DNA of 60,362 bases from an uncultured Candidatus Saccharibacteria bacterium. Lineage in GTDB: Bacteria; Patescibacteriota; Minisyncoccia; JAHISW01; Tagabacteraceae. This document shows positions 14,571 through 58,911 of this stretch, one piece after another. Every line of letters begins with the position of its first letter. Position 1 is the stretch's first letter. The stretch spans positions 1 through 60,362 of the forward strand of contig CAZPYD010000002.1 of NCBI GenBank assembly GCA_964590835.1, given 5' to 3'. The position numbers were made by a program, and so were the translations under genes. The notes beneath the pieces are model-generated. The model had not been told where the DNA came from. It ran no database searches and saw only the letters and a program-made list of their open reading frames with translations.

Positions 14571-14584
14571 GTATAATAAAAGTA

Positions 14585-37956: not shown

Positions 37957-38552
37957 AGATATTTAAATTTAATCTGAAAATCAAACAAGAAGTACAAGAG
38001 GCGATTAAAATGGCAATAGATGTTTTAAAAAAGGGCGGGATTGTTATTCACCCTACGGACACGTGTTATGGTATAGCAGCTGATATTAACAACCATAGAG
38101 CGATTAATAATGTTTATCAACTGAAAGGGAGAAATTTTAATAAGCCTTTTTTTATTATCACTTCTAATATTACTCAGTTTAAAAAGTTTGGTTCTTTTGG
38201 TTCTTTGGCAAAAAAAATAATTGAAGCCAATTCAGAAAAAATGCATACCTTTGTTGTTCCTAGGAAAAAAGCTGTGCCAGATCGTTTAAATCCGGGATTA
38301 GAAACGATTGGTATTCAGATACCGAGAAATATTTTTTCTTTAAGTTTGCTTGAAGAGTTAAAAAATCCGGTGATTGGTACCAGTGCCAATGTTTCAGGTT
38401 TGCCGGTAGTTTATTCTATAAGTGAATTGATGGACCAGCTGGATTCTGTTAATAGATATCCAGATTTGATTTTGGATGCGGGTAGACTTCCTGTGAGAAA
38501 ACCATCGACCATAATAGAAATAAAAGAAAATAAAGTTAAAATTTTACGCTAA
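37953..38552 (+). CDS. YrdC/Sua5/TsaC-like domain protein, copy 2
   Basis: VIHPTDTCYGIAAD, LKGRNFNKPF, VIGTSANVSG, KPSTIIEI. ATGA overlap with copy 2 of the Kae1-like gene. Confidence 0.75.
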   Translation: MKIFKFNLKIKQEVQEAIKMAIDVLKKGGIVIHPTDTCYGIAADINNHRAINNVYQLKGRNFNKPFFIITSNITQFKKFGSFGSLAKKIIEANSEKMHTFVVPRKKAVPDRLNPGLETIGIQIPRNIFSLSLLEELKNPVIGTSANVSGLPVVYSISELMDQLDSVNRYPDLILDAGRLPVRKPSTIIEIKENKVKILR

Positions 38553-39512: not shown

Positions 39513-40217
39513 ATGGAACATGCGATTATTATAAATAATATAGAAGATTTTAAATATTTTGATAAAAAATATAGTAAAATATATTTTGGTAATGAATTTT
39601 GTTCAAAATTATTACCAAAAGAAAAAGAAGTAGAAGAAGTTATTGATATTATTAAAAAAAAGAAATTAAATATTACCTTATTAACGCCCCAATTAAATAG
39701 TGAGGGGGTTAAAAGAGTAAAAAAAATAATTAAACAACTATATAAAGAGAAACTATTAAGTGAAATTGTGGTTAATGATTATGGTTTGCTTTATTATATA
39801 AAGGAAAATTTTCTTGACTGTGAGATTATTCTAGGGAGGACATTGTCTTGCGGGGTTTTTTTGTATAAAAAAAGTTTTTTAAATAAAATAGGGATTAAGA
39901 GGATTGAAATTGATAATTTGAAAAAAAATAAAAAATATAATTCATCGAAAATTTCCTATTATTATCCTTTCTCGTTTGTTTCTGTATCAATGTATTGTCC
40001 AGTTGCTGACATTTATAATAATAAGTCTAAAAATCATGGAATAATTGATTGCTCGAAAGAATGTTCAGGGTTATCACCCTTAGAGATAGATAGTAAGTTT
40101 TTTTCTAAAAAAGTTTTTCTTAAAGGAAATACACAATTTATAAAAAATAAAAATATTAACTCAAGAGAATTAATTAAAAATGGGGTTGATAGATTAGTTT
40201 TTCAACCAAATATTTAA
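39513..40217 (+). CDS. short U32-like protein (UbiV/YhbV-like)
   Basis: IYFGNEFCSKLLP resembles the YhbV-type N-terminus, with later Cys residues (YCP...C..EC). It is adjacent to the larger U32 gene. Confidence 0.45.
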   Translation: MEHAIIINNIEDFKYFDKKYSKIYFGNEFCSKLLPKEKEVEEVIDIIKKKKLNITLLTPQLNSEGVKRVKKIIKQLYKEKLLSEIVVNDYGLLYYIKENFLDCEIILGRTLSCGVFLYKKSFLNKIGIKRIEIDNLKKNKKYNSSKISYYYPFSFVSVSMYCPVADIYNNKSKNHGIIDCSKECSGLSPLEIDSKFFSKKVFLKGNTQFIKNKNINSRELIKNGVDRLVFQPNI

Positions 40218-40219
40218 AT

Positions 40220-40984
40220 ATGAAAAAAGAAATGAGTTTTAGGCCGAGAGAACTTTTAACTATTTTGAGTGTTTATAATGGGGTTAGACCTTTAGGGAGG
40301 ATTACTTGTTTTTGTGATGAGGGATTGGGTTACTGTGTCCGTATAGCAAAGGAGCTTAACTTGGAATATAAAATTTATAAGAAAGATTTTGTGTATATAT
40401 CAAAAGAAAAAGATTTAGTTAACGAAGGTTTTAGTTTGCATCATTCTTTGTCCAGTGTAACTAGTAAAGAATTAAAAAATAATATTTTAGGAAAGTTTTA
40501 TGGTTATCCAGGATGTTGTGTAAAAAATTTTGTAGAAAATAAAAATTTAACAAGGAAAAATGATGATATGGGAGTTCTTTTAAAGAGTTTTAAAAATTCA
40601 AAATCAAATATATTTTCAATTTATACAAACTGGTTTTTAAGTTTTAAGCCAGTTTTGCATTTACCGCATGCGTTTGATTGTGAGCCATCTATTGAGGTAG
40701 GAAAAAAGAATATAGAGCTCTTGGGTGGGTATAATAAAGAAGGTGTTGGTGGCTTGATTAAAAAACTGAAAACATGTGTATTGATATATAAAAGAAATAT
40801 TTTGCTAGTGGAAGATTTTGATATTAATAAGGAGGGGGTAGTTTTTGAAAGAAGCGGGTGGTCTATTAATTCACACTTAAACAAAAAAGATACCTATAGC
40901 TTAGGGTCGTGGGAATCGCTACTTGATCCGTTTAATTTTAAAAATTTAAAAAAAATAAAAGTACTAGTATTTCATGAGGTTTAA
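40220..40984 (+). CDS. hypothetical protein with conserved-looking Cys motifs
   Basis: CFCDEGLGYC and YGYPGCCVKNF...HLPHAFDCEPS. I cannot name a family. Confidence 0.6.
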   Translation: MKKEMSFRPRELLTILSVYNGVRPLGRITCFCDEGLGYCVRIAKELNLEYKIYKKDFVYISKEKDLVNEGFSLHHSLSSVTSKELKNNILGKFYGYPGCCVKNFVENKNLTRKNDDMGVLLKSFKNSKSNIFSIYTNWFLSFKPVLHLPHAFDCEPSIEVGKKNIELLGGYNKEGVGGLIKKLKTCVLIYKRNILLVEDFDINKEGVVFERSGWSINSHLNKKDTYSLGSWESLLDPFNFKNLKKIKVLVFHEV

Positions 40985-42326
40985 AATAAATAAACATAAC
41001 TACAATGACTTGTCTGCTGTTGCGGAATTTGTTAGGCAAGCCGGAGACAAAAAATTAGAAATATTTTTAAGTAAAGACAACACCCCTTTTTTAGGGGATG
41101 TTTTGAGTGTTGTGTATGAGGTATTGGATGATTATGAAAGATATTTTCAAATAATATTGAAAAACATCCCATATTGCGTTGTTTCAAAAGAGACAGTAGA
41201 TCATGTTGTGTTTGATATTAAAAACGGAGATAAAATTAAAGATTGTAAAAAATGTAAATGGAATAAAAACTGTGGAGGTTTTTCAAAAGGGTATTTAAAA
41301 AAATATGGAAGTAAGGAAGTTTGCTCACAGCCTGATTTACCTGCTGAGGTAATGATTGAGGTGACACCAAAATGTAATTTTAAATGTGATTTTTGTTTTA
41401 ACAAAATTTCTTTTGCAAAACACGGTAGAGGTATAAAACCCCTAAGCGCAAGTTATGTAAAAAAAATAATTGATAATGTTTCTAGTGCTGGAATACAAGT
41501 TATAAGGTTTACTGGTGGAGAACCCTTGTTAAGAAAAGATATTTTTACTTTATTTAAATATGCTAAAAGTAAAAATCTGGAAGTACGTTTGAATACCAAT
41601 GGATATTTAATTGATAAAAAAATAGCTGAAAAATTAAAAGGTATTGTGGATAATGTTTTAATTCCAATTGAAAGTTGGTCGGATAAAAAAGAAGAAAAAA
41701 TAACAGGAGTTGCCAATGCTTTAAGTAAAAAAAAGGAAGCAATTGATTTTTTGAAAGAGAAAAAGATTCCTATTGTTAGGGTAGGTACTGTTGCCACGAA
41801 AGAAAATATTTTAAATTTTGATAAACTTGCGGACTTTGTTGATAGATTAGATATAAATGAGTGGGAGTTTTATCGTCCAGTTGAAATTTCTAAAAAAGAA
41901 AATTTGAATTCCAAATTAGTAAATATTTTAGTGAATAAATTAATAGACTTTAGACAGAAAACAGATAAGATTATTTTTATTGCCAATGCCTTGCCTTTTT
42001 GTGTGATAAAGGATTTGAATAAAATTAATATTGTAAGTAAGGGGAGTATTTCTGATGATGGGCACTCTAGGTTAGTGGTTGATCCGAGAGGTTTTGTAAA
42101 GCCTCATTATTTTATAAATAAAAACATTGGAGATCCTTTGAATATACTTAAGGCATGGAATAGCCCTTTTATGAAAAAGATTCGTGGTTTGGAGTATTTA
42201 CCCAAGGAATGTCAAAATTGTTTTTTTATTTTTAAATGTCGCGGTGGGAGTCGTAATTCTGCAATGCTGTTTAACGGTGGGTATGACAAAGTTGATCCTT
42301 TGGCGAATTTTTCTTTTCGTGCTTAA
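40974..42326 (+). CDS. radical SAM/SPASM-like protein with N-terminal extra Cys module, copy 2
   Basis: The N-terminus has IPYC...CKKCKWNKNCGG. The core has CNFKCDFCFNKISFAKHGRG and FTGGEPLL. The C-terminus has DGHSRLVVDPRGFVKP...CQNCFFIFKCRGG. By eye it is about 50 percent identical to 27040..28764 in the core. Confidence 0.85.
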   Translation: MRFKINKHNYNDLSAVAEFVRQAGDKKLEIFLSKDNTPFLGDVLSVVYEVLDDYERYFQIILKNIPYCVVSKETVDHVVFDIKNGDKIKDCKKCKWNKNCGGFSKGYLKKYGSKEVCSQPDLPAEVMIEVTPKCNFKCDFCFNKISFAKHGRGIKPLSASYVKKIIDNVSSAGIQVIRFTGGEPLLRKDIFTLFKYAKSKNLEVRLNTNGYLIDKKIAEKLKGIVDNVLIPIESWSDKKEEKITGVANALSKKKEAIDFLKEKKIPIVRVGTVATKENILNFDKLADFVDRLDINEWEFYRPVEISKKENLNSKLVNILVNKLIDFRQKTDKIIFIANALPFCVIKDLNKINIVSKGSISDDGHSRLVVDPRGFVKPHYFINKNIGDPLNILKAWNSPFMKKIRGLEYLPKECQNCFFIFKCRGGSRNSAMLFNGGYDKVDPLANFSFRA

Positions 42327-42363
42327 ATTTAAAGAGGTTGTTATTTAATTATTTTATAAAATT

Positions 42364-42558
42364 ATGGATAAAAAACTACTTAAAAAATTACAGAATATTA
42401 ATAAAGATGATTCATTCTTAATAACCTTTACAGTTTTTAATAAAAAGAAAAAATTAGACACTTTTTTATTTGTTAATGATTTTCCGTATAAGGATATACC
42501 AAGTACTAAAAAAATGATAAGTAAATTAATTGATGAAATGGTTGAAAAGAAGAATTAA
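42364..42558 (+). CDS. small Phe/Lys-rich protein (candidate substrate peptide or recognition/chaperone element)
   Basis: 64 aa with no Cys. The middle reads FLITFTVFNKKKKLDTFLFVNDFPYKD. It lies immediately upstream of the HemN-like gene and the rSAM array. Confidence 0.45.
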   Translation: MDKKLLKKLQNINKDDSFLITFTVFNKKKKLDTFLFVNDFPYKDIPSTKKMISKLIDEMVEKKN

Positions 42559-42559
42559 G

Positions 42560-43942
42560 ATGCAAAAAGAAATTCAATTTTTAAATAATAATTTAACTGA
42601 AATTGTACAAGCTATAAATTTTTATAATAATGAAGTTTGGTTTAGGCAATTTCCTGTTCCTCCACCTTTGGGAAGTGCTTATTTTTCAAATAGTAAATCA
42701 GGTTTTGCTGAAAAAGAAATAAAGAAAGTAAAAGAGATTGTTTTGTATATAAATATTCCTTTTTGTAATAATCAGTGTGATTATTGTGGTCTTAGGGGAG
42801 TGAATAAGGTTAATAAACATCGTTCCTCTCTTTATGTGGAGTGTTTGAAAAAAGAGGCTGAATTTGTTTTAAAAGATAATTCTAATAAGATAAAAATACT
42901 TGCTATTTTAATTGGAGGCGGCACCCCAAGCCTGCTTTTGCCACAAGATTTATATAAATTATTAAATTTTTTAAGGCAGAAGTTTGAAATTGTAAAAGAT
43001 GCACAAATTTCTATTGAGGTTTCTCCGGAGGATGTGTCAGAAAAGATGTCACAATCTTTTGCAAAAGGAGGTGTAGATAGGGTTTGTATTGGTGTTCAAA
43101 CTTTTAATGAACAAAAATTAAAACAATGTGGGCGTAGATCACAAAAACATCAACATGTGTATGAAGCGGTGAAAAATTTGAGAAAAACAGGGATAGACAA
43201 CATAAACTTGGATTTGATATATGGGCTTAAAAAAAACGAAACATCAAAGGAATTTTTAAAAGACAATTTGAGCCATATCGTAAAGATAAAACCTGCTAAT
43301 ATTAATTTTTTTTCTTTACAAAATCATACCAAATATTCGGAAAACATTAGGCGATTTTATTCGAAGGAGTTTGAAAAGGCAAAGCAGGTAATAATTTCTG
43401 AATTATCAATGTGGAGTAAAAGAGAAAAAAGTGTTTATTCTAAATATTTTTTCTTGAGAAGATGTCGTAACGTGGATTGTGTTGCTATTGGGGCTGGTGG
43501 TAAAAGTGAGTTTTGGACAGGTGGTAAGTTCATCGAGAGAACTAATACAAATAGTAGATATAATCCATTAGAATATATGAAAGATATAAAGAAAGGTTTG
43601 TTTAAATATGATTATTCAATGCTTAATAAAGAATGCTCTGTTCGTAAATTTATAATTCATAATTTAAATCTAGAGACTGGGGTGGATAAACGGATTTTGA
43701 ATAAAATTTTTCCTGATTACGGCGCAATCATTAATAAGATTTTTTCTAAAATTAAAGACAATACAACAGAAGCGAAAAATGTAATTAGGCTTAAGGATAA
43801 TTTTGAAAAATCACTTCCTTTTAAAACAAAAAATAAAGATGTAAATTATTTTATTTTTTCATTTTGTTTTTTGTATTCCCCTCAAGATAGGAGTATGTTG
43901 ATTGAATCATTTAAAAAAATAAATAAAAAATTAAAAGTTTAA
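42560..43942 (+). CDS. HemN/HemW-like radical SAM protein
   Basis: CNNQCDYC, IGGGTPS, GVDRVCIGVQTF. The track ORF opens at TTG 42530; ATG 42533 and ATG 42560 are both possible starts. Confidence 0.75.
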   Translation: MQKEIQFLNNNLTEIVQAINFYNNEVWFRQFPVPPPLGSAYFSNSKSGFAEKEIKKVKEIVLYINIPFCNNQCDYCGLRGVNKVNKHRSSLYVECLKKEAEFVLKDNSNKIKILAILIGGGTPSLLLPQDLYKLLNFLRQKFEIVKDAQISIEVSPEDVSEKMSQSFAKGGVDRVCIGVQTFNEQKLKQCGRRSQKHQHVYEAVKNLRKTGIDNINLDLIYGLKKNETSKEFLKDNLSHIVKIKPANINFFSLQNHTKYSENIRRFYSKEFEKAKQVIISELSMWSKREKSVYSKYFFLRRCRNVDCVAIGAGGKSEFWTGGKFIERTNTNSRYNPLEYMKDIKKGLFKYDYSMLNKECSVRKFIIHNLNLETGVDKRILNKIFPDYGAIINKIFSKIKDNTTEAKNVIRLKDNFEKSLPFKTKNKDVNYFIFSFCFLYSPQDRSMLIESFKKINKKLKV

Positions 43943-43951
43943 ATTATTTTT

Positions 43952-44848
43952 ATGGAAAGGGTAGATATAAAAATTGGTTTTGGTTGTAACAATCATTGTT
44001 TTTTTTGTGTTCAGGGTGACAAGCGTAATTTTTGTGTAGCCAAAAGCAAAAAAGAAATAAAAGATTCTTTAATAGAGGCCTATACTAAAGGAAAAACTCA
44101 AGTTGTGTTTACTGGAGGGGAACCAGCTCTTCACCCTGATTTTTTTGAATTGATTAAAATAGCCAAAAAAATTGGCTATGATTCGGTTATGATACAGACA
44201 AATGGCCGGATGTTTGCTTATAAAAATTTTTGCGTTAAAACTATTCAAGCAGGAGCAGATTTGTTTTCGCCCGCAGTTCATGGTCACAACAAAAAGATTC
44301 ATGATTATTTAACGGATGCTGAGGGTAGTTTTGATCAAACCGTTAAGGGTATCAAGAATTTAAAAAATTTAAATCAATTTGTTTCTACAAATACAGTTGT
44401 TACATCAAAGAATTATAAGTTTCTTCCTAAAATCGCTCAGATACTAGTTGATTTAAGTGTTGACCAATTTCAATTTGCCTTTATTCATTTGGGTGGTACA
44501 GCTCAAAAAAATAAAGATTGGATTACTCCTAAAAAAAGTGAGATTATGCCTTATATTAAAAAAGGTTTGGATATTGGAATTAAAGCTGGTAAATGGGTGA
44601 CAACAGAAGCTATTCCTTATTGTTTTATGAAGGGGTATGAAAAACACATAGCAGAAATAGGTATTCCTAAACCAATGATTTTTGATGCTGGTTTTAAAGT
44701 TGAAGATTATGCTAAATATCGTAAAAATGAAGCTAAGACTAAAGGACCGGAGTGTAAAAAATGTAAGTATTATAAGGTTTGCGAAGGCCCTTGGAAAGAA
44801 TATCCGGAGATTTATGGTTGGAAAGAATTTAAGCCTATAAAAAAATAA
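43952..44848 (+). CDS. radical SAM protein, array member 1
   Basis: CNNHCFFC, FTGGEPAL, TNGRMFAY, HGHNKKIHD...GSFDQ..KGIKNL, IPYC...CKKCKYYKVCEGPWKEY. Confidence 0.85.
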   Translation: MERVDIKIGFGCNNHCFFCVQGDKRNFCVAKSKKEIKDSLIEAYTKGKTQVVFTGGEPALHPDFFELIKIAKKIGYDSVMIQTNGRMFAYKNFCVKTIQAGADLFSPAVHGHNKKIHDYLTDAEGSFDQTVKGIKNLKNLNQFVSTNTVVTSKNYKFLPKIAQILVDLSVDQFQFAFIHLGGTAQKNKDWITPKKSEIMPYIKKGLDIGIKAGKWVTTEAIPYCFMKGYEKHIAEIGIPKPMIFDAGFKVEDYAKYRKNEAKTKGPECKKCKYYKVCEGPWKEYPEIYGWKEFKPIKK

Positions 44849-44849
44849 A

Positions 44850-46745
44850 ATGAAAAGATTATATTTTGCTAGTTTATATAATTGCAATGAGGATTGTTTG
44901 TTTTGCACGCGTCGAGGGGATGAAGACCCGATTAAGTTTATAGATACAAAAAAAGCTAAAAAAATCCTTAGGAAGAAAAAAGAAGAAGGTTATAAGGAAA
45001 TTTATTTTGATGGTGGAGAACCAACCTTGAGAGAAGATTTACCGGAATTGATTGAGTTTGCTAAAAAACTGGGTTTTAAAAATGTTAATATTTTAACTAA
45101 TGCCATTTTGTTGGCTGATAATGATTTGGTTAAAAAAATATTGATGGTTAAAAACACAAAAGATTTTAATTTGTCTTTTTCTGTTTCTCTTCATTCTCAT
45201 AAAAAAGAAATTTCTGAAAAATTAGTGGGCCAAAAAAATACTTTTAACAAGACAATAAAGGGGATAAAAAATCTGATTAAAAATGACTGTGGAGATATTT
45301 CTCTTTATCATATTATTACAAAAAATAATTATAGAGATTTATCTAGTTTTGTAAATTTTGTAAATAAAAAATTTCCTGAAATAAAAAATATAACTTTTTC
45401 TTTTATTTATCCTGCGGGAGCTGCTTTAAAAAATAAAAATATTTTCCCTCAACTTTCTAAGGTAGAGCCTTGTCTTCAAAAGGCTTTTAAATTATGTAGA
45501 CAAAATAAAATAGATTTTTCTATTAGTACTTGTGGTACAGTCCCTTTATGTTTTCTTAAAGGTTATGAAGATATTTTATTGAAACAACAAGAGCTAGATC
45601 AGCCAGATAATGTTGGACTTGTAGATGCTCAAAAAGATGTTGAGTATGAATTGGCAACTAAAAAATTTCACAAAAAAACAAAAATAAAATCTTCTAAATG
45701 TGTAGATTGTTTTTATAATAAAAAATGCGGTGGTATTTGGAGGGATTATGTGGAGATGTACGGTATGGACGAATTGAGTCCCATAGTAAAAAAACAAGGT
45801 GATGTTTTTCTTGTAGTTACAGGGTGGACTTGCAATAATAACTGTTCTTTTTGTTCGACAGTTGCTGACAGGAATATGAATAGGAGTTTTGATGAGATTG
45901 TTTTTGATCTTAAAGAGGCTTATAAAAAAGGATATAGAATTATTGAATTTATTGGTGGGGAGGTGAGTATTAGGCCCGATTTTTTACTTCTTTTGTCTTC
46001 GGCTAAAAAAATAGGATTTCAAGATATTCGTTTGACTACCAACGGAAGAGTTTTTAGTTATAAAAGTTTTTTGAAAAAAAGCATAGAAGCGGGACTTAGG
46101 ATTATAAATTTTTCTCTACACGGTCATAAGGCGATTATACATGATGGGGTAACAAGAACTCCCGATTCTTTTAAACAGTGTGTAGAAGGAATAAAAAATG
46201 CGGCAACAGAACCAGATGTAAAAGTAATTGTGAACACCGTTGTTTCGAAGGCGAATTATAAATATATAAAAAAGATGGGTTTGTTTTTGAAAGAATTAGG
46301 TGTTGGAGAATGGCATTTATTGGAGCTTTTGCCTGATGGTCGAGCATCGGAAGTATATAACAGTATCGCTGTAGGTTATAAAGAATTGTCGTCTTATTTA
46401 AATAAAATTATGGAATGTGCTGATTTTTTTGTTCAGATTGATATATTTGATTTTCCATTTTGTTTGTTTAAATCGGAAATGTTTGGTTTTAAAAATGTAA
46501 CTTTTTTTACTCCTCAAAATAGATATGAAGATATAAACCAAAAAGGGTTTGATCCGGTTAGAGTATCTAAAGAAAAAATAAATGGTAAAATTATTTATCA
46601 GGATAAATATAAGATTAAGCCAAAAATTTGTCATGATTGTTGTCATTTTGATAAATGTGGTGGTTTGGCAAAATCTTATTTTGAAAAATATAAAGATAAA
46701 GAGATTAAATTTTTGAAAAATGAAAATACAAGAAACATATTATAG
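44850..46745 (+). CDS. two-domain radical SAM fusion, array members 2 and 3
   Basis: Two CX3CX2C motifs (CNEDCLFC and CNNNCSFC) and two C-terminal modules (VPLC...CVDCFYNKKCGGIWRDY and FPFC...CHDCCHFDKCGG). The domain junction is near 45.79 kb. Confidence 0.85.
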   Translation: MKRLYFASLYNCNEDCLFCTRRGDEDPIKFIDTKKAKKILRKKKEEGYKEIYFDGGEPTLREDLPELIEFAKKLGFKNVNILTNAILLADNDLVKKILMVKNTKDFNLSFSVSLHSHKKEISEKLVGQKNTFNKTIKGIKNLIKNDCGDISLYHIITKNNYRDLSSFVNFVNKKFPEIKNITFSFIYPAGAALKNKNIFPQLSKVEPCLQKAFKLCRQNKIDFSISTCGTVPLCFLKGYEDILLKQQELDQPDNVGLVDAQKDVEYELATKKFHKKTKIKSSKCVDCFYNKKCGGIWRDYVEMYGMDELSPIVKKQGDVFLVVTGWTCNNNCSFCSTVADRNMNRSFDEIVFDLKEAYKKGYRIIEFIGGEVSIRPDFLLLLSSAKKIGFQDIRLTTNGRVFSYKSFLKKSIEAGLRIINFSLHGHKAIIHDGVTRTPDSFKQCVEGIKNAATEPDVKVIVNTVVSKANYKYIKKMGLFLKELGVGEWHLLELLPDGRASEVYNSIAVGYKELSSYLNKIMECADFFVQIDIFDFPFCLFKSEMFGFKNVTFFTPQNRYEDINQKGFDPVRVSKEKINGKIIYQDKYKIKPKICHDCCHFDKCGGLAKSYFEKYKDKEIKFLKNENTRNIL

Positions 46746-47586
46746 GGTAGGCAAAAGTCCTTTTGTTTATATTGGCTACAATTGTAACAACAATTGTATT
46801 TTTTGCTTTGAAGATGGCAGAGAATTTTCTAAAAAAACTACAAATGGAATTAAAAAGGAGATGGAGACCATAAGACAAAATTTTGATTTTATTAATTTTA
46901 TGGGGCAAGAGCCAACACTAAGAAGTGATGTTGTTGACCTGGTTGGGTTTGCAAAAGATTTGGGTTTTAAAAATATAGGCATTACAACCAACGGTCGGAT
47001 GTTTGCTTATAAAAAATTTACTCAAGATATTTTAAATAGCGGCTTAAATCAAGTTGTTTTTACTGTAGTTGGTGGATCAGCAGAGGGGCATGATTTACAT
47101 ACTTTGGCCAAAGGTAGTTTTGACCAAGCTCTGGCGGGTATTAAAAATGTTTTACTTTTAAAGAAACCAGAAGTGAGTGCGATAGTTAATATTATGGTTA
47201 CTAAAAATAATTTTAAGGAGTTAGTTGATATGGTGGATTTTTATGTAGGGTTGGGTGTAAAAGAAATAAACATTGGCCATATTATGCCTCTTAATAAAAA
47301 AATTGAAAATTCCAAAAAAATGATTGCCAAAATGAGCGAGGTTGTACCACTGCTTATTGAATGCCAAAATAAATATAGCGATAGAGTAAAGTTTTTATTT
47401 GTTGAATATCCAGCATGTATTTTTCCAAAAGAGTTTGGTGATTTGGCGTTTCCTTGTCTTGAAGAAAATCCACAAAAAAAAAGGATAAGTATTTGTCAAA
47501 AGTGCGATCATAATAAAAAATGTCTGGGTATAAGCAAATCTTATTTGAAATTATATGGTGATAAAGAATTTTCAATTAATAATTGA
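46720..47586 (+). CDS. radical SAM protein, array member 4
   Basis: CNNNCIFC, FMGQEPTL, TNGRMFAY, YPAC...CQKCDHNKKCLG. It overlaps the upstream gene by 26 nt. Confidence 0.85.
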   Translation: MKIQETYYRVGKSPFVYIGYNCNNNCIFCFEDGREFSKKTTNGIKKEMETIRQNFDFINFMGQEPTLRSDVVDLVGFAKDLGFKNIGITTNGRMFAYKKFTQDILNSGLNQVVFTVVGGSAEGHDLHTLAKGSFDQALAGIKNVLLLKKPEVSAIVNIMVTKNNFKELVDMVDFYVGLGVKEINIGHIMPLNKKIENSKKMIAKMSEVVPLLIECQNKYSDRVKFLFVEYPACIFPKEFGDLAFPCLEENPQKKRISICQKCDHNKKCLGISKSYLKLYGDKEFSINN

Positions 47587-47589
47587 TAA

Positions 47590-48516
47590 ATGACAGAGAA
47601 AAAAAATAAAATTAAAAAGACAGTTATCATTACTGGTTATAAATGCAATAATAATTGTTCTTTTTGTATTGATGCCGATAAAAGAAACTTAAGGAATAAA
47701 AACACGGTAGAAATTAAAAATGAAATAATGGAGGCGAAAAAGAAGGGGACTACTTATTTGGAATTTATTGGTGGAGAGGTAACATCAAGAGGTGATGTTT
47801 TTGAGTTGGTAAGTTTTGCAAATAATCTTGGTTTTGAGACTATATCTATGGCGACAAACGGTAGGGTTTTTTCTTATCTAGATTTTACAAAAAAAATTAT
47901 TAAAGCTGGTTTAACTGATATAATTTTTTCTATTCATGGCCATAATGCTAAAATACATGATGATTTGACTCAGTCTCCCGGTAGTTTTGACCAGCTTAAG
48001 CAAGGTTTGAAAAATTTTAAAAAATGCGACTTTAAAAAAATTTGTTCCAACACCACCATTGTAAAAAAGAATTATAGATATCTAAAGCAGATAGGGGAGT
48101 TTATTTATGGTAGCAAAATTAAAAATGCGGAGTTTATTTTTGTTGACCCCAACTATGGAGGAGCTTATAACAATTTTAAAAAAATTGTTCCAAAAATATC
48201 TACGATTGCTCCTTATGTTAAAAAATGCCTTGATTTGGGTAGAAATAATAATTTTCGTTGGAACATAAGATATGTACCTTTGTGTTATTTTCAGAATCAT
48301 CTTGATCAAATTAGTGAAATTAGAGAAATAGAAAATTTTCAAACAGAACATCTTGCTCCTGATTTTAAAAATTTTGATGTGGAAAATTCCAGGCAAGAAA
48401 TTGGTCGAGCAAAGACCAAAAGGTGTAAAGATTGTAAATTGTTTAATAAATGTGAGGGTATTTGGAAAGAGTATCTAAAGCAATATGGTGACAAGGAATT
48501 AAAACCAATTATTTGA
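47590..48516 (+). CDS. radical SAM protein, array member 5
   Basis: CNNNCSFC, FIGGEVTS, TNGRVFSY, HGHNAKIHD, VPLC...CKDCKLFNKCEGIWKEY. Confidence 0.85.
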   Translation: MTEKKNKIKKTVIITGYKCNNNCSFCIDADKRNLRNKNTVEIKNEIMEAKKKGTTYLEFIGGEVTSRGDVFELVSFANNLGFETISMATNGRVFSYLDFTKKIIKAGLTDIIFSIHGHNAKIHDDLTQSPGSFDQLKQGLKNFKKCDFKKICSNTTIVKKNYRYLKQIGEFIYGSKIKNAEFIFVDPNYGGAYNNFKKIVPKISTIAPYVKKCLDLGRNNNFRWNIRYVPLCYFQNHLDQISEIREIENFQTEHLAPDFKNFDVENSRQEIGRAKTKRCKDCKLFNKCEGIWKEYLKQYGDKELKPII

Positions 48517-48519
48517 ATT

Positions 48520-49455
48520 ATGGATATTTGTATTTGGGATAAATGTAATAATAAATGTTTAATGTGTACTAACCCGGATGGGCCTTGGCGTAATTTTGAC
48601 GGCACCATAGGAGAGGGTTATGGTTTTGATGTTCTTACTCAAAGGATTAAAAAAATTAAAAAAAACATTGATCCCTCTGAGGCTATTATTCTTACAGGCG
48701 GAGAGACCACCTTGCATCCTCGTTTTTTGGATATTTTGAAATTTGTTCGCAAGACTTTTCCAAAACAAGAAGTCAGGGTACTGACTAACGGTCGCAGTTT
48801 TTTTTATAGAGATTTTACGAAGCGTGTTTTGGAAACGAAAAATCTTAATTTGGCGATTTCTTTATATGGACCTACAGCTAAAATACATGACACCATAACT
48901 AGAACAAAAAACGGCTTTGAACAAACAATAAGAGGGATAGAGAATGTGCTCGCTTGCAGGGGAGAAGATCAAAGTGTGGAAATAAGGACGGTTGTAACTA
49001 AACTTTCATATAAACATATTAATGAAATTTTGAATTTGATTAGTTTAAAATTTCCATCAATCGATAGGGTTATTGTTATTTTTATGGAAATTGAAGGGCA
49101 GGCGATTAAAAACAAAAAGGCGTCTAGTATTTCTTACTCTAAAGTAAAGCCTTATATCAAAAAAACATATCAGTTTTTAAATATATTAAGGGAAATAAGG
49201 TTTTATCATTTTCCTTTATGTATGATTGAGCCAAAGTTTTGGCCTTCTGTTTGGCGTACTCTTCCAAACAAAGAGGTTTCTTATATTTCTGTCTGCGATA
49301 AGTGTAAGTATAAAAAATATTGCTTGGGTATTCATAACGAATATCTAAAAAACATTGGCGATAAAGAATTTAAGCCAATAAAAAAAGATTTAATTATTCA
49401 AGAAACAAATAATTATTATCACCCTATAGCAGGATTAGAAATAAATGATATTTGA
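48520..49455 (+). CDS. radical SAM protein, array member 6
   Basis: CNNKCLMC, LTGGETTL, TNGRSFFY, FPLC...CDKCKYKKYCLGIHNEY. Confidence 0.85.
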   Translation: MDICIWDKCNNKCLMCTNPDGPWRNFDGTIGEGYGFDVLTQRIKKIKKNIDPSEAIILTGGETTLHPRFLDILKFVRKTFPKQEVRVLTNGRSFFYRDFTKRVLETKNLNLAISLYGPTAKIHDTITRTKNGFEQTIRGIENVLACRGEDQSVEIRTVVTKLSYKHINEILNLISLKFPSIDRVIVIFMEIEGQAIKNKKASSISYSKVKPYIKKTYQFLNILREIRFYHFPLCMIEPKFWPSVWRTLPNKEVSYISVCDKCKYKKYCLGIHNEYLKNIGDKEFKPIKKDLIIQETNNYYHPIAGLEINDI

Positions 49456-50194
49456 TATTTTATTTTTACCAGTCCTTTTTTTTATTGCTGCCATAACATG
49501 TTATGAGGATTTTAAATATGGCAAAGTGAGGAACAAATGGATACTTTTAGGTATTTTTTGGGGAGTGATTGTGGTAGTTTTTTTTGTTGCTTGGTATTTT
49601 ATAGCTTCTCCTGTCACTAGGTTTTATTATTTAAATGTTCTAAATTTTTCGCCAGATTCTCCTATGCCGGTGTTTACTGTTAACCCCTCCTATTTGGGCA
49701 CTGTTTTATGGAACTTTCTTGTTGCATTTGTTGTAGCTTTTTTAATGTGGCGCTTTGGGGCATGGGCTGCCGGTGACGCCAAGCTTTTTGCGGTCTTTGC
49801 GTTTCTTTTACCGTTAAAATATTATTGGAAAACATATTTTTCTTATTTTCCTTCTTTTGTGTTGTTGTCAAATATTTTTTTGTTAATTTTTTTGTATTTA
49901 CTTTTTAGGTCTTGTTTTTTTTCTTTTAAGTCACTCCCTTTTTTAATTAGTGGATTGCGGAAAAATTTTAAAAAACAAGGGATATGGGAAAAGGTATCTG
50001 AGAAGTTTTCTTGGAGTAAACTTAAAAAAAGACTAAGGTCAATTCCGTGTTTCATTTGGATTTTTCTAATTTTGGGTTTGTTTCAAAATACAATTGAAGA
50101 TTATTTGTTGATGTTTTGTCTTTACAGATACTTATATTTGGTTCTTTTGTTCTTTTTAATAAATTTTGGTCTGATGTTTTTCAAAAGCCAGTGA
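49445..50194 (+). CDS. A24-family (prepilin/preflagellin peptidase-like) aspartyl membrane peptidase
   Basis: A polytopic membrane protein. YEDFKYGKVRN (first Asp motif, D....g.I.N-like) and AAGDAKLF (GxGDxKL-like second Asp motif). Confidence 0.6.
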   Translation: MIFDILFLPVLFFIAAITCYEDFKYGKVRNKWILLGIFWGVIVVVFFVAWYFIASPVTRFYYLNVLNFSPDSPMPVFTVNPSYLGTVLWNFLVAFVVAFLMWRFGAWAAGDAKLFAVFAFLLPLKYYWKTYFSYFPSFVLLSNIFLLIFLYLLFRSCFFSFKSLPFLISGLRKNFKKQGIWEKVSEKFSWSKLKKRLRSIPCFIWIFLILGLFQNTIEDYLLMFCLYRYLYLVLLFFLINFGLMFFKSQ

Positions 50195-50670
50195 TATTTA
50201 GAGTTATTATTTTTTTCTTTATCCTTACTTTTGGTTACGGGCTTATTTTTTCTTGGGTTTTAACTTGGCAGATACTTTTCCAGTCTATAATGATGTTGGT
50301 GATTTTTATGACCGTTTTTACCTTACTTGGTAAGGTGATAGATTTTTACGTTTCCCAAACAAGTATCAGTAAAATAAAAATAGAATCACTGAAGGCAAAA
50401 ATGAATTTAACAGAGGATGTGATTAATGAAATAAAAAAAGATGAGAAGCTTTATAATAATCAAATAGGGCAGTTTTATACTGATGGTTTGACACAAGAAC
50501 AAGTAGATATTATTAAAGAAAGAGCAAGGAAAAATAAAAATTTTTCAAAAACTATTTCTATTTATAAACCATTTCCTTTTGTTGTTTGGATGTTTATTGG
50601 TTTGATTGCCACAATGTTTTTAAAAGGTTCTATGGTGAGTTTTTTTATAAAAAATATTTTCAGTGGATAA
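50191..50670 (+). CDS. membrane protein with cytoplasmic C-terminal segment, translationally coupled to the A24 peptidase
   Basis: GTG 50191 overlaps the TGA 50192-50194 of the upstream gene (GTGA). The track alternative is TTG 50116. Three to four TM helices. Confidence 0.5.
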   Translation: MIFRVIIFFFILTFGYGLIFSWVLTWQILFQSIMMLVIFMTVFTLLGKVIDFYVSQTSISKIKIESLKAKMNLTEDVINEIKKDEKLYNNQIGQFYTDGLTQEQVDIIKERARKNKNFSKTISIYKPFPFVVWMFIGLIATMFLKGSMVSFFIKNIFSG

Positions 50671-50739
50671 AATTATAAATAATAATTTTATATTTGTGGT
50701 ATAATAAATATAAAATTATAAATAATAATTTTATATTTG
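50668..50739. repeat. 29-bp perfect direct repeat, two copies, in the promoter region
   Basis: taaaattataaataataattttatatttg occurs at 50668-50696 and 50711-50739. TGgTATAAT lies between the copies at 50697-50705. Confidence 0.85.
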
Positions 50740-50746
50740 AGATATA

Positions 50747-51784
50747 ATGAAAAATAATATTTTATTTGGGATAGGTTTATTGGTATCTTCTTTTTTTGTT
50801 GTTTTCTTTGTTTTTGCTTATAACGCAGGAACGGATTTTATTCTTTGTAGCTCTACATTTAATGGTGTTAGCTGTACTTTAAATTGGACCGTGACAGGTT
50901 CATCTAGTCAAACTGCTTACCAGATTCAAATTGATGATAATAGTAATTTTAATAGCCCAGAATCTGATACTGGTGTTGTTAATTCTATAAATAACTTTTA
51001 CGTGGTGAATACTGCTGGTCTTAGTTTCGGTGTAAATTATTATTGGCGAATAAAAATTCAGGACAATTATGGTAGTTGGATTACTGATTGGGTGGAGGGG
51101 GATAGTGCTTTTCAGCTTTCTGCTGCCTGTGCTGGTTCTGTAACAGCAGCAAGTTTAACCGTTTCTTCTCATGGTCCTGCGACTTATTGTGGAACTGCTT
51201 TGCATAATTTCTCATGGGTTTTCACTTCAGCTAGTAGCAACGATCAATCTCGTTTTCAGTTTCAGGTAGACGATGATAGTGGTTTTGGTTCTCCGGAGGT
51301 AGATAGAGATTTTACTGGCTTATCTAATCCAAGTCCTACAACGAATAATCAAATTGTTTATGTTGCTTCGGCCCCGACAGCAGATAAATTAACATATAAT
51401 AATACATATTATTGGAGAGTAAAGGTTTATGATAATTCTGGTAATGATTCTGGTTGGGTAAGTGGTTCAGCTTTTTCTACGGCTACACATTCTTATCCTG
51501 ATGTAGATTTTAGTTGGCAGCCTAATAGTCCAAGTGTTGGGGATAATGTTCAGTTTACTGATAATGCAACCTGTTCGGTTGGTTGTAGTGGTTGGTCTTG
51601 GGGTTTCTCAGATGGAACACCTTCAACATCTAGTATTCAAAATCCAATTATTCAGTTTAGTTCTGATGGCTTAAAGTCAACAACTCTGCAAGTTACTGAT
51701 ACTAGTGCTTATTCTTGTTCTGTGTCTAAGAATGTTGATATAGGTACTCAAATACCTGATTGGAGAGAAATTTTACCGCAGTAA
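50747..51784 (+). CDS. secreted/anchored protein with two repeated beta-rich modules and a C-terminal PKD domain
   Basis: N-terminal hydrophobic helix. Repeats YQIQIDDNSNFNSPE...YYWRIKIQDNYGSW and FQFQVDDDSGFGSPE...YYWRVKVYDNSGNDSGW. PKD-like VQFTDNA...WSWGFSDGT. Confidence 0.7.
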   Translation: MKNNILFGIGLLVSSFFVVFFVFAYNAGTDFILCSSTFNGVSCTLNWTVTGSSSQTAYQIQIDDNSNFNSPESDTGVVNSINNFYVVNTAGLSFGVNYYWRIKIQDNYGSWITDWVEGDSAFQLSAACAGSVTAASLTVSSHGPATYCGTALHNFSWVFTSASSNDQSRFQFQVDDDSGFGSPEVDRDFTGLSNPSPTTNNQIVYVASAPTADKLTYNNTYYWRVKVYDNSGNDSGWVSGSAFSTATHSYPDVDFSWQPNSPSVGDNVQFTDNATCSVGCSGWSWGFSDGTPSTSSIQNPIIQFSSDGLKSTTLQVTDTSAYSCSVSKNVDIGTQIPDWREILPQ

Positions 51785-51860
51785 AATTATAATAAAAATC
51801 ATTTTAAATTTTCTTGTCTTTGTGCTTGAGCCAAAAAAGACTTTGGTGTATATTTAATGC

Positions 51861-52052
51861 ATGTCCAGTAATACACATTCGCGCATGTTCTTCTATTATG
51901 TTTACGCGCTGATTAGTTTGAGAGATATAGTGTATTATGAGGCAAGTCTAAATCAAGAAGATGCGAAACAAAGAGAAAAATATTTTAAAACAACCACAAG
52001 TCGTAGATTTATTATCAAAAGAATCAAGAATTATCTTGATTTAACGCGATAG
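51861..52052 (+). pseudogene. internally deleted GIY-YIG nuclease family remnant
   Basis: FFYYVYAL (GIY region) is joined directly to IVYYEASLNQEDAKQREKYFK (the conserved C-terminal helix region). The middle YIG/Arg segment expected in 80-100 aa family members is absent. Confidence 0.4.
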
Positions 52053-52065
52053 TGTATTACTGGGT

Positions 52066-53310
52066 ATGGTAAAAATAACTAAAAAAACAACTCCTAAGAC
52101 TACAAAAAAGAAACCGGTTAAAAAAACCACAAAAAAGATTGTGACTAAAAAAGGTAAGGCTGTAGCAAAAAAAGCCCGCCTTGCTCGCCTCGATTCGGCG
52201 AAGCGGGACTCGACAAAGGCGAGGCGAGTTGTTAAAAAAACAAAAAAAGAGTCTAATGAAGCAAAAATAGAAGCCTTGGTATCAAAAGGAGTGTCTCGAG
52301 GCTTTGTTACTCAAAAAGAAATTATAAAGGAATTCCCTAGAATAGAAGAAGATATTGTTTTTTTAGACCATCTTTATACTCGTTTTGAAGATGAAAGTAT
52401 TGATGTTTTGGACAGCAGAGATCTTTTGGAAACAACAAAGGAGGAGAAAAATGTCGCTGGTAAAATTATAAAGACACCGACATCTTCAGATTCTGTCCAA
52501 ATGTATTTAAAGGAAATTGGAAGGATCTCTCTTTTGACCGCAAAAGAAGAAAAAGATTTGGCAAAACGTATAGAGAAAGGGGATGAAGATGCAAAAAGAA
52601 GCCTTACTCAAGCTAATCTTCGTTTAGTTGTTTCTATTGCTAAAAAATATATTACTCGAACACCAAATTTAACCATTTTGGATTTGATTCAAGAAGGGAA
52701 CCTGGGTCTTTTTAGAGCTGTTGAAAAGTTTGATTGGCGAAGAGGATTTAAGTTTTCTACTTATGCGACTTGGTGGGTTAGGCAGGCGATTACTCGTGCT
52801 TTGGCAGATCAATCAAAGACTATTCGTATTCCTGTTCACATGGTGGAAAGTATTTCCAAGTATCAGCAGGTTGTGAGGAGATTAACTCAGGATTTGGACA
52901 GAGAGCCTTTGGCAGAAGAGGTTGCTTCTGAAATGGGACTCGAGGTAGAAAAAATTAGACATATGCAAAAAATTTCTCAAGAGACAGTTTCTTTGGAGGC
53001 GCCGGTTGGTGATGAGGATAAAGATTCTACTTTAGGGGAGTTTATTGAGGATGATAAGATTCTTTCTCCGGATCAACAAGCTATGAGGAGAATTTTGAAG
53101 GATCAAGTGAAAGAAGTATTGATGGATTTAACACCGCGAGAGAAAAAGATTTTGGAAATGAGATTTGGTCTTATAGATGGTATCACACACACTCTAGAAG
53201 AAGTGGGAAGAAAATTTGGTGTAACCAGAGAGCGTATTAGGCAGATTGAAGCAAAAGCCATTGAAAAAATAAGATTGCATGATAAACTGAAAAAGTTAAA
53301 AGAGTATTAA
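52066..53310 (+). CDS. rpoD: primary sigma-70 factor RpoD with Lys-rich N-terminal extension
   Basis: [73 protein letters not shown]. Confidence 0.95.
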
Positions 53311-53340: not shown

Positions 53341-53412
53341 TCTGCGGTAGCTCAGTGGTAGAGCGGTCGACTGTTAATCGATTGGTCGCAGGTTCGAATC
53401 CTGCCCGCAGAG
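53341..53412 (+). tRNA. tRNA-Asn (anticodon GTT), CCA not encoded
   Basis: Hand fold: acceptor TCTGCGG/CCGCAGA, D-arm GCTC-AGTGGTA-GAGC, anticodon stem GTCGA/TCGAT with loop CTGTTAA, T-arm GCAGG-TTCGAAT-CCTGC. Confidence 0.9.
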
Positions 53413-54897
53413 CAAATTAGGATGGCTAGATACTTTTGCGATACTGTTAAACGGTTCTCGCATTGTAAATACTAGCTTTTTCCTATCAACAACAGAGTTC
53501 TGAAGTAAGAAACCAAGAAGTTGGTTTTTTTGTGTTACTTCCGAACTTTCAAATATACCCAAAGACCTTTGTGCTAGACTTAGGGCTGATTTTGCAACGA
53601 TATAATAGTTTTCATTGGCACTTGTTAATTCGGATTTTTGTAAGTCTAAATCGTGCTGTTTTTCTGTATACTCTTTTAACTTTTTGTCATATATATCCTT
53701 AGTAATACTACAATCCATTAGTAGGTCGTAGGAATTACTTATTCTTTTTTGTAGTTTGTCGTATGTTTCGTTGATTTGTTTGATTTTCTTTTTATGATAT
53801 AAAGTTTGGCTGTCGTGGCTTTTCTTTAGGTAAGCCACAATCTTTGTTATCTGCTTGTCAGATAGCTTTATTTGCCCCAATACTCGCTTTATAGGCTTGA
53901 GAAGCACCTCTTCTCTAACATATTCCCTTTGGCAGTTTTTCTTGCCGTTTGTGCAACTGTAATAGATATATTTACTTTTTTTTATTTCTGCTGTCATTGA
54001 ACAGCCACATTTTGCACATTTAAGAAGTCCATTAAAAATAAATTGTTTTTTATTTAGAGTTTTTGTTGGGTTACAGTTTTTTCTAGTTAGTTGGTCTTGA
54101 ACTTTTAAGAACAAACTTTTTGTTATAAGAGGTTTGTATTTGTGGTCAAAATGTATATCGTATTTTCTAGAATAGGCAACACCATAATAGAAAGGGTTTT
54201 TAAGTATTATATGAACCACACTTGTATAAACAGGTTTGCCTTTAGCTGTTGTGATTTTTCTTTCTTTTAATTCTTTAGCTAAGCTAGCACAAGAGCAATT
54301 ACCAGAAGCGTATCTGTTAAATAATTCAACCACAATATAGCTTCTTTCTTCGTCGTGAGCAATGTCTTTTCTCAGCCCTTTCTTTTCGTTTAATGGGATA
54401 TTTGTGTAGCCAAAAGGAATTGGTCCTGTCCATTCACCAACTCTTCTTTTCTGTTCAAAGGCTCTTTTTACATTATCGCTGATAGCATCAGAGTAATACT
54501 TTGCTAGCCCTAAGCTCATTCCAAATTGAAATTTTTCAACTGCAGACATTTTGGAGTTTATAACTTGTCCATCAGAAACAAAATGAAGTTCTATTTCGTC
54601 TACAATAGCTTTCTCATAAAGAGCAGAAACTCTTTTGTCAAAAATGTTTCTAGAAAGTCTATCAACTTTATCAAAACAGATAGCAATTTTTTCTTTGTTC
54701 TTTTCTAGATATTCTAAAACATTATCAAATTCATCTCTTTTTGTTTTATAAGCACTTTCATCAAAGCTAAAAGTTTCGGCAATTTTGAAGTCTTTCCTTT
54801 TGCAGTAATCTTGGATACGACGAATTTGAGCGGGCAGGGAATTACCAGCGTCTTTTTGTTCTTCTGTTGAAACTCTAGCTAAAATTACTGCTTTCAT
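53374..54897 (-). CDS. large serine recombinase (resolvase catalytic domain + recombinase domain + zinc ribbon + coiled coil)
   Basis: MKAVILARVSTEEQ holds the catalytic Ser motif. CAKCGCSM...YYSC forms the zinc ribbon. The last 13 codons are antisense to tRNA-Asn. Confidence 0.85.
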   Translation of the reverse strand: MKAVILARVSTEEQKDAGNSLPAQIRRIQDYCKRKDFKIAETFSFDESAYKTKRDEFDNVLEYLEKNKEKIAICFDKVDRLSRNIFDKRVSALYEKAIVDEIELHFVSDGQVINSKMSAVEKFQFGMSLGLAKYYSDAISDNVKRAFEQKRRVGEWTGPIPFGYTNIPLNEKKGLRKDIAHDEERSYIVVELFNRYASGNCSCASLAKELKERKITTAKGKPVYTSVVHIILKNPFYYGVAYSRKYDIHFDHKYKPLITKSLFLKVQDQLTRKNCNPTKTLNKKQFIFNGLLKCAKCGCSMTAEIKKSKYIYYSCTNGKKNCQREYVREEVLLKPIKRVLGQIKLSDKQITKIVAYLKKSHDSQTLYHKKKIKQINETYDKLQKRISNSYDLLMDCSITKDIYDKKLKEYTEKQHDLDLQKSELTSANENYYIVAKSALSLAQRSLGIFESSEVTQKNQLLGFLLQNSVVDRKKLVFTMREPFNSIAKVSSHPNLLCGQDSNLRPID

Positions 54898-54898
54898 A

Positions 54899-58853: not shown

Positions 58854-58911
58854 AATTTTTTTGTTTCTAATTACTAATTATTATACTTTACAATAGTTTA
58901 CAATTCAATTT

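Follow-up and report, generated by a model that had tools for sequence, protein, structure and literature searches.

The canonical His-Xaa-Ser (HXS) system, hxsD-hxsB-hxsC-hxsA, was defined bioinformatically (TIGR03976-03979) and is credited to Haft and Basu in PMC9062424. In Escherichia coli it is an antiphage system (Li et al., 2026, PMC13128918), in which HxsC binds HxsD and a change of +8 Da on an SHRSS repeat of the processed HxsA is attributed to two enzymes; the authors suggest that it represents one carbon gained and four hydrogens lost (PMC13128918). So read, the shift implies several chemical events from two enzymes, and more enzymes could mean more events per repeat. Reconstitution in vitro failed, and modification of a repeat protein by radical S-adenosylmethionine (SAM) enzymes combined with phage defence is known only for the E. 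coli system (PMC13128918). In the survey of that study, 99.7% of HXS systems were in Pseudomonadota and 99.8% had four genes (PMC13128918). Here, we describe a locus on contig CAZPYD010000002.1 of an uncultured Candidatus Saccharibacteria bacterium (60 362 nucleotides; 'the window'), in which five consecutive genes at 43952-49455 encode six paralogous radical SAM domains. This array is probably the enlarged 'HxsC' module of a variant HXS protein-maturation system, and its likely target, a protein that contains about 19 Ser-His-Gly repeats, has its gene in the same one-strand cluster, 22 kb upstream. We favour this reading because the best model matches are HxsC4 and HxsC, because HxsD, HxsB and HxsA4 are encoded in the cluster and in related loci, and because the paralogues are old and have been kept.

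The cluster (19137-50670) spans 31.5 kb. As in canonical HXS, HxsD and HxsB score above their cut-offs; the repeat protein scores above that of a variant model (HxsA4, NF038313). HxsC has its nearest relatives in the array enzymes, which have the C-terminal C-x2-C-x5-C-x-G motif in common with it. The window differs from canonical HXS in encoding eight clear and one borderline HxsC-like domains instead of one HxsC, a dedicated protease resembling Peptidase_A24 ('A24-like') and a short membrane-anchored (Ser-His-Gly)n protein that lacks the peptidoglycan-binding domain of E. coli HxsA. The gene order is not the compact four-gene hxsD-hxsB-hxsC-hxsA with HxsB beside HxsC (PMC13128918), and the host lineages belong to Patescibacteria, Elusimicrobia, Omnitrophota and DPANN archaea rather than to Pseudomonadota. 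Compared with the type 4 models of NCBIfam, the repeat protein passes HxsA4 and the genes A, B~C, D and E (listed below) have HxsC4 ('rSAM_rare_HxsC4') as their best match, but unlike HxsC4 members the array is far under the cut-off of 500 bits. The HxsA4 and HxsC4 models show that curators have noticed a fourth type; in the literature searched for Hxs terms there was no description of this variant, of these two models or of a multi-paralogue array. Judged from its sequences, the window system would work like HXS, with array enzymes that score below the membership thresholds of HxsC and HxsC4.

For the chemistry of HXS modification, the data from E. coli consist of the +8 Da change and the failed reconstitution (PMC13128918). 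The variant has a simpler likely substrate, a near-perfect tripeptide repeat, and its loci form a natural graded series with two to nine HxsC-like enzymes. An investment of 31.5 kb and the presence of related arrays in genomes of 0.69 and 1.18 Mb argue for an important function. Set against the 99.7% of systems that the survey placed in Pseudomonadota, the related loci reveal a large, unreported HXS reservoir in candidate phyla and archaea.

The radical SAM array

The five genes of the array are as follows.

43952-44848, plus strand: gene A, HxsC-like radical SAM protein of 298 residues (PF04055, 80.2 bits; motifs CNNHCFFC and CKKCKYYKVC)
44850-46745, plus strand: fusion gene B~C, HxsC-like, 631 residues (domain B, 44850-45788; domain C, 45789-46745)
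46720-47586, plus strand: gene D, HxsC-like radical SAM protein of 288 residues (PF04055, 61.2 bits; HxsC4, 121.8 bits)
47590-48516, plus strand: gene E, HxsC-like radical SAM protein of 308 residues, with the closest matches in other genomes
48520-49455, plus strand: gene F, HxsC-like radical SAM protein of 311 residues, the array copy nearest to canonical HxsC

A sequence-only reading of the window had described six radical SAM domains in five genes at these coordinates, a di-domain fusion joined near 45.79 kb and intergenic distances of a few nucleotides or overlaps, all of which were recovered. The open reading frames (ORFs) lie exactly where they had been placed, Pfam PF04055 (Radical_SAM; gathering cut-off 29.5 bits) was passed by all five genes with 58-126 bits, and CxxxCxxC is present in all six domains. 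The gaps between the genes are, in order, 1, -26, 3 and 3 nt. B~C contains two Radical_SAM stretches, and its Cys motifs are complete in both halves (CxxxCxxC as CNEDCLFC at residue 12 and as CNNNCSFC at residue 328; CxxCxxxxxC at 284 and 594), with the junction at about residue 313 (about nt 45789). The three SAM-cluster Cys residues, GGE (GQE in gene D) and P-x-C...C-x2-C-x5-C-x-G are kept in all six domains. When these were aligned with a further copy at 15295 (described below), 14 columns were invariant, among them all Cys residues of CxxxCxxC (three) and of the C-terminal P-x-C...C-x2-C-x5-C (four) as well as the G and E of GGE. The blueprint attributed to all copies holds for the Cys motifs; TNGR.F.Y and HGH....HD occur in most copies only. 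Domain B has TNAILLAD for TNGR.F.Y and HSH for HGH, and departures are also found in genes D (VGG) and F (YGP).

HxsC4 (NF038332, an exception model with a cut-off of 500 bits) was the best NCBIfam match for A, B~C, D and E, and HxsC (TIGR03977, an equivalog model with a cut-off of 267.9 bits) for F. The HxsC4 scores were 169.9 (A), 226.5 (B~C), 121.8 (D), 156.8 (E) and 102.2 bits (F); on TIGR03977, F obtained 180.7 bits, B~C 174.6 bits and the remaining single-domain copies 86.8-103.8 bits. All of these values are under the respective cut-offs. Best matches were divided in the same way among orthologues from an Omnitrophota locus, an Elusimicrobia locus and an archaeal chromosome, which scored 150-209 bits on HxsC (F type) and 136-185 bits on HxsC4 (A and E types, under the cut-off). 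In BLASTP, the best match of an Aeromonas plasmid HxsC (401 residues) was gene F (24% identity, E = 6e-24); the Aeromonas protein terminates in C-x2-C-x5-C-x-G, as the array copies do. By these comparisons the array enzymes are distantly related to HxsC/HxsC4, which is the second maturase in HXS. PADLOC applied to the window gave weak generic viperin (pVip) matches to the radical SAM cores only and none for HxsD, HxsA4 or the protease, so the 2023 defence catalogue does not cover the system.

The copies are old, diverged paralogues of one radical SAM enzyme. Pairwise identity within the array is 26-39%, the longest common DNA words are about 20 nt and the fusion gene is identical in three independent assemblies. 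Recent duplication and assembly artefact were considered and are ruled out by the divergence together with the agreement of the assemblies. Two findings that the sequence-only reading had named as fatal to its proposal, near-identical duplicates and loss of cluster ligands, were looked for among the copies and neither was seen. Across Patescibacteria loci the orthologues of the array copies are 40-73% identical, compared with 26-39% between paralogues, and a neighbour-joining tree gives every array domain a separate clade, to which each locus contributes about one member. The clades comprise 75 members in 71 loci (F), 58 in 52 (A), 44 in 43 (E), 28 in 23 (C), 18 in 16 (D) and 11 in 10 (B); A, E and F are thus a widely shared core, and B, C and D are mainly additions in Patescibacteria. 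For gene E, hundreds of homologues at 60-74% identity were found within Patescibacteria, with orthologues 41-55% identical in Elusimicrobia and 36-53% identical in DPANN archaea.

At 14 positions the same residue is present in at least 80% of members in all seven groups: seven Cys residues and N20, G61, E63, N90, F133, G290 and Y295 (gene E numbering, as below). The C-terminal Cys residues kept in at least 80% of every orthologue group are C232, C279, C282 and C288. A strict test for group-specific conserved residues returned only three positions (154, 227 and 228), which are too few to argue for differing pockets. The proposal that the copies may divide labour on one polymeric substrate is supported in part: it fits the old one-per-locus clades, the kept ligands and the presence in the cluster of a repeat protein that could be the polymer.

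Fused B~C orthologues form at least 30 protein clusters of 618-657 residues, 44-71% identical over at least 95% of their length; in other Patescibacteria (loci L009, L032 and L069) the two domains are encoded by separate adjacent genes, C preceding B. When gene E was used in a library-wide phmmer search, 678 representatives were obtained at E <= 1e-30, many of them 600-1400 residues in length and matched over two to four stretches; multi-domain proteins are therefore common in the family. Fusion of this kind suggests that the paralogues act in physical contact. The AlphaFold 2 (AF2) model of B~C has a predicted local distance difference test (pLDDT) score of 87.4 and a predicted template-modelling (pTM) score of 0.54; both domains are confident, and the model is evidence neither for nor against a fixed interface of the two barrels.

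The AF2 model of gene E (pLDDT 85.9, pTM 0.85) was compared with solved structures using Foldseek. The nearest folds were GDGT-MAS (7tol/7tom), BlsE (7vob), SuiB, viperin-like enzymes, SkfB and anSME, with TM-scores of 0.54-0.67 normalised to the query, a probability of 1.0 and 15-23% identity. As modelled, gene E has an ordinary radical SAM core that lies in the neighbourhood of SPASM/Twitch enzymes, and none of the solved structures is close to it. Like SPASM/Twitch enzymes, the array domains have a radical SAM partial barrel. Their Cys-rich C-terminal region might bind an auxiliary cluster; Pfam SPASM gave no match to them, and their four conserved C-terminal Cys residues, rather than seven, suggest one such cluster.

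Hxs genes, the A24-like protease and related loci

Four further genes of the cluster belong to the proposed system.

19137-19553, plus strand: HxsD, 138 residues (TIGR03976, 55.9 bits; cut-off 50)
19778-21205, plus strand: HxsB radical SAM/SPASM maturase, 475 residues (TIGR03978, 546.2 bits; cut-off 370)
21289-21654, plus strand: HxsA4 His-Xaa-Ser repeat protein, 121 residues (NF038313, 96.6 bits; cut-off 55)
49445-50670, plus strand: A24-like polytopic membrane protease, directly after the array (PF01478, 27.4 bits; cut-off 26.5)

The sequence-only reading had given the array neither a family name nor a link to Hxs genes; the link is provided by HxsD, HxsB and HxsA4, found above curated cut-offs. 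The gene order is copy X (the copy at 15295), an nrdJ-like gene, HxsD, HxsB, HxsA4, about 22 kb of other genes and the array, and from 19137 to 50670 a single strand is used throughout, with genes mostly 0-11 nt apart or overlapping.

Ser-His-Gly proteins first surfaced as a recurrent small family when the ORFs of related loci were clustered. In the window, about 19 Ser-His-Gly units were seen at 21469-21639 in a six-frame scan. HxsA4 consists of a charged conserved N-terminal leader, a hydrophobic segment and the repeats. The leader is common to bacterial and archaeal HxsA4 (...LP.IKK.I..FL.SEEGKISK...), and the hydrophobic segment starts after a Gly and often closes in an Ala-x-Ala-like site. 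The 9-nt period of the repeat DNA is only 74% matched, with synonymous codon variation, so the repeat is maintained at the protein level. Many short HxsA4 proteins finish in Ser plus an aromatic residue (SW, SF). In two Patescibacteria loci (L011, 5392-6921; L022, 421-1914) the HxsA4-type repeat protein continues into a fused C-terminal domain some 350 residues long.

The Pfam pass of the A24-like protein is borderline (27.4 bits for the window fragment and 26.5 bits for the intact version in L001, against a cut-off of 26.5). As in type IV prepilin and preflagellin peptidases (Peptidase_A24), both Asp motifs are present (D-x5-V-x-N and W-A-A-G-D-A-K-L-F), and they are kept in 44 of 63 homologues. 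Unlike prepilin peptidases, the window protein has a C-terminal extension of about 250 residues with more membrane segments, and in Elusimicrobia and archaea the gene is tied to Hxs genes, not to pilus genes. The family ranks second in frequency across the related loci (59/82). Of its 63 copies, 54 have an HxsC-like or Hxs gene no more than 100 nt away, and 55 share the strand of that neighbour. A 4-bp deletion (TTAA) near 50113 breaks the window gene into ORFs of 249 and 184 residues. L002 carries the same split, and the otherwise identical contig L001 has an intact gene of 409 residues; the split may reflect true polymorphism, decay to a pseudogene or a fault of the assembly.

Related loci were collected by a gene E scan of one genome per species, which gave 80 loci; 82 loci centred on an E orthologue were analysed. 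By title, the 80 are from Patescibacteria lineages, Omnitrophota, Elusimicrobia and DPANN archaea, and complete chromosomes with arrays include those of Ca. Nealsonbacteria (0.69 Mb, L022) and Ca. Fermentimicrarchaeum (1.18 Mb, L083). The sequence-only reading had proposed a search for the same array in related genomes; arrays do recur across the 82 loci and share its orthologue clades. Near-full-length family domains number 385, in 79 of the 82 loci (median five per locus, maximum nine), and 367 of them have both Cys motifs. HxsA4, HxsB or HxsD is encoded within 10 kb in 46 of the 82 loci, including 21 of 27 with Elusimicrobia titles and 12 of 21 with archaeal titles. The order in L025 is a compact HxsD-HxsB-x-HxsA4-E-F-A24 (x, unassigned ORF). 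In L077, A24-HxsD-HxsB-HxsA4 is followed by four HxsC-like genes, and in L087 HxsD-HxsB-HxsA4 is followed by eight radical SAM domains in seven genes and then A24.

Some recurrent neighbours of the arrays have no counterpart in the window: a class-V aminotransferase/cysteine desulfurase-like gene (416 residues) in 21 loci, mostly Elusimicrobia (L014, L016, L027, L028, L034 and others), an M20 peptidase in nine loci and a Gly-rich protein of 277 residues, maybe secreted, in nine loci. L088 (a Logan contig from SRR7589087) encodes a protein of 1054 residues with four matched family stretches, beside five more radical SAM genes, a DUF483-like gene, a B12-binding radical SAM gene and a carbamoyltransferase. 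Nitrogenase-paralogue clusters of Elusimicrobia, which are rich in radical SAM genes (10.1101/765248), were considered as a possible identity of these loci; no nif-like family was recognised among the annotated recurrent families of the 82 loci, several families being unannotated and no direct test having been made.

Proposed maturation and competing explanations

In the maturation that we propose, HxsA4 would be made with its charged leader, hydrophobic segment and about 19 Ser-His-Gly units. In the cytoplasm an HxsC-like enzyme would cleave SAM at the [4Fe-4S] cluster of CxxxCxxC, and the resulting 5'-deoxyadenosyl radical would abstract a hydrogen atom from the repeat units. A second cluster, on the four conserved C-terminal Cys residues, would accept an electron, as in SPASM/Twitch-type enzymes. 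The separately conserved paralogues may each catalyse a step of their own or target distinct atoms within the tripeptide, and HxsB and HxsD would take part as in the E. coli system. A membrane protease or signal peptidase would then remove the N-terminal part, so that the modified His-rich polymer ends outside the membrane; we infer that the A24-like enzyme cuts the HxsA4 leader, for which the conserved Gly in SEEGK and the Gly where the hydrophobic segment starts are candidate sites. By analogy with E. coli the product may be a barrier to the entry of phage DNA, which is the least certain step and, for these lineages, a guess. A more far-reaching version, which we regard as speculative and rather doubtful, is that up to nine radical SAM enzymes with different reactions, together with an intramembrane aspartyl protease, make a new, heavily modified extracellular (Ser-His-Gly)n polymer that serves as a phage-DNA barrier or an attachment structure, in a line shared by ultrasmall or streamlined Patescibacteria, Omnitrophota, Elusimicrobia and DPANN archaea.

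Several observations weigh against the assignment to HXS maturation. No array domain attains the curated score of HxsC (best 180.7 bits) or HxsC4 (best single domain 169.9 bits). The N-terminal extension of canonical HxsC, about 110 residues, is absent in all window copies; the BLASTP alignments begin at residues 101-117 of Aeromonas HxsC and residues 6-18 of the window copies. Among solved structures the nearest are those of GDGT-MAS, whose substrate is a lipid, and BlsE, whose substrate is a nucleoside sugar. HxsA4 and the array are separated by about 22 kb of other enzyme genes, which makes a small-molecule or glycan product possible, and Hxs genes occur within 10 kb in only seven of 17 Patescibacteria loci.

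Some of these points would suit an array that serves a small-molecule, glycan or lipid pathway encoded at 22719-43942, its nearness to Hxs genes being incidental. The absence of an N-terminal peptide-binding domain from the array domains and the best structural and sequence matches in the Protein Data Bank (PDB), BlsE and GDGT-MAS, would agree with this, as would the GT1, GT28, ATP-grasp, short-chain dehydrogenase/reductase (SDR), pyridoxal phosphate (PLP) decarboxylase, TsaD/Sua5-like and U32 genes of the cluster and the position of TsaD/Sua5-like genes just upstream of the array in L004, L005 and L007. In the Elusimicrobia, Omnitrophota and archaeal loci, however, the glycosyltransferase, ATP-grasp and TsaD/Sua5 genes are absent and it is HxsA4, HxsB and HxsD that adjoin the HxsC-like genes; L025 consists only of HxsD, HxsB, the unassigned ORF, HxsA4, two HxsC-like genes and the protease. 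We consider such a pathway unlikely. It appears quite improbable that the substrates of the array are not HxsA4 but other exported proteins processed by the A24-like enzyme, such as the Ig/PKD protein at 50747-51784 or pilin-like proteins. L004, L005 and L007 do have the order array, A24-like gene, Ig/PKD gene and small proteins with weak N_methyl (pilin) matches, but the Ig/PKD family is present in only 11 of the 82 loci and was not found in the Elusimicrobia and archaeal loci whose gene order was mapped, where the A24-like gene adjoins HxsD or sits between HxsC-like genes. In the window itself no pilin-like gene follows the Ig/PKD gene, rpoD being next.

Finally, labour might not be divided at all, the copies being duplicates that are redundant or in decay, or else artefacts of assembly. 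Domain B and genes D and F have lost some family motifs (TNGR, HGH), and the neighbouring A24-like gene is frameshifted in this assembly. Every cluster ligand is nevertheless kept in all copies, which are 26-39% identical without long shared DNA; three assemblies agree on the sequence, and elsewhere in Patescibacteria each copy has orthologues of 40-73% identity, about one to a locus. This explanation is already largely refuted and seems to us very improbable. Maturation of HxsA4 by an enlarged HxsC module is the reading retained here.

Other radical SAM genes and surroundings of the cluster

The following genes of the window are further members of the HxsC-like family or encode other radical SAM proteins; scores refer to a hidden Markov model (HMM) of the family built from the window copies.

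15295-16128, plus strand: copy X, seventh HxsC-like copy, 277 residues (family HMM, 271.9 bits; TIGR03977, 89 bits, under the cut-off; Cys motifs present)
23745-24710, plus strand: remote HxsC-like radical SAM protein, 321 residues (HMM positions 10-303, 122.7 bits)
27040-28764, plus strand: borderline radical SAM protein, 574 residues (residues 234-552 against the family HMM, 106.5 bits)
40974-42326, plus strand: radical SAM/SPASM-like protein, 450 residues (HMM positions 224-299 match residues 1-118)
42530-43942, plus strand: HemN/HemW-like radical SAM protein, directly upstream of the array and conserved in L004

Copy X lies upstream of the ribonucleotide reductase gene; its membership of the family, on the other side of that gene from the array, had been recognised from the sequence and is borne out by its HMM score. 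That count of copies, correct for the array and copy X, was too low, having omitted the genes at 23745 and 27040 and the module at 40974; the family has eight clear domains and one borderline domain in the window. The 23745-24710 protein has HxsC as its top NCBIfam match (62.5 bits), and its clade contains 46 members in 37 loci, including Elusimicrobia and archaea. For 27040-28764, generic SPASM-type families outscore HxsC. The first 118 residues of the 40974-42326 protein are a copy of the C-terminal Cys module of the family, with the motif IPYC...CKKCKWNKNCGG...YLKKYGSKE. The one-strand cluster also encodes the HemN-like enzyme and three more radical SAM proteins, at least one of them with a SPASM domain.

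The stretch 22719-43942 encodes GT1, GT28, ATP-grasp, SDR and PLP decarboxylase enzymes, two TsaD/Sua5-like pairs and a U32-family protein. Most of these enzymes are not conserved beyond close relatives, the exceptions being the U32-family protein and a protein of 234 residues, which recur in some Elusimicrobia loci. They may further decorate the product or synthesise something else. Further features of this stretch and of the flanks of the cluster are listed below.

11635-12936, minus strand: Peptidase_U32-family gene
13049-14506: PIN-PhoH protein, flanking copy X
14543-15268: DUF389 membrane protein, flanking copy X
16345-19086: class II-like ribonucleotide reductase with ATP-cone, between copy X and HxsD
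25912-27036 with 28771-29430: TsaD/Kae1-like and Sua5/YrdC-like pair
36904-37956 with 37953-38552: second TsaD/Kae1-like and Sua5/YrdC-like pair
38559-39506: Peptidase_U32-family gene within the cluster
42364-42558: conserved ORF of 64 residues, between the SPASM-type and HemN-like genes, 63% identical in L004
53341-53412, plus strand: tRNA gene
53374-54918, minus strand: large serine recombinase gene, abutting the tRNA gene
56305-58677, minus strand: Eco57I-like type IIG restriction-modification gene, beyond the recombinase, where an ORF of 471 residues also lies

Both TsaD-like proteins are far under the TsaD cut-off (153 and 145 bits against 296); instead of being tRNA t6A enzymes, they probably serve the pathway as recruited carbamoyl- or acyl-adenylate transferases. 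Some members of the U32 family (UbiU/UbiV, RlhA and TrhP) are oxygen-independent hydroxylases and not peptidases. The U32 gene within the cluster is divergent (62 bits), and U32-like genes adjoin arrays in seven loci, mostly Elusimicrobia (including L043, L046, L048, L051, L060 and L080). The 64-residue ORF is called as a gene in other assemblies; it was considered as a precursor or an HxsD-like partner and rejected, having no family match and no repeats. PIN-PhoH homologues are also found near the arrays of L034 and L038.

Rfam identified only two tRNAs in the window, neither inside the cluster. A promoter scan of 40000-52200 gave 49 sites compared with 57.5 in shuffled sequences, so no enrichment was found, and terminator-like matches in the same interval were scattered within genes and gave no operon boundaries. 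The sign of the GC skew flips near 54 kb, and the stretch 53341-60033, which begins at the tRNA gene and includes the recombinase and restriction-modification genes, looks like an integrated mobile element.

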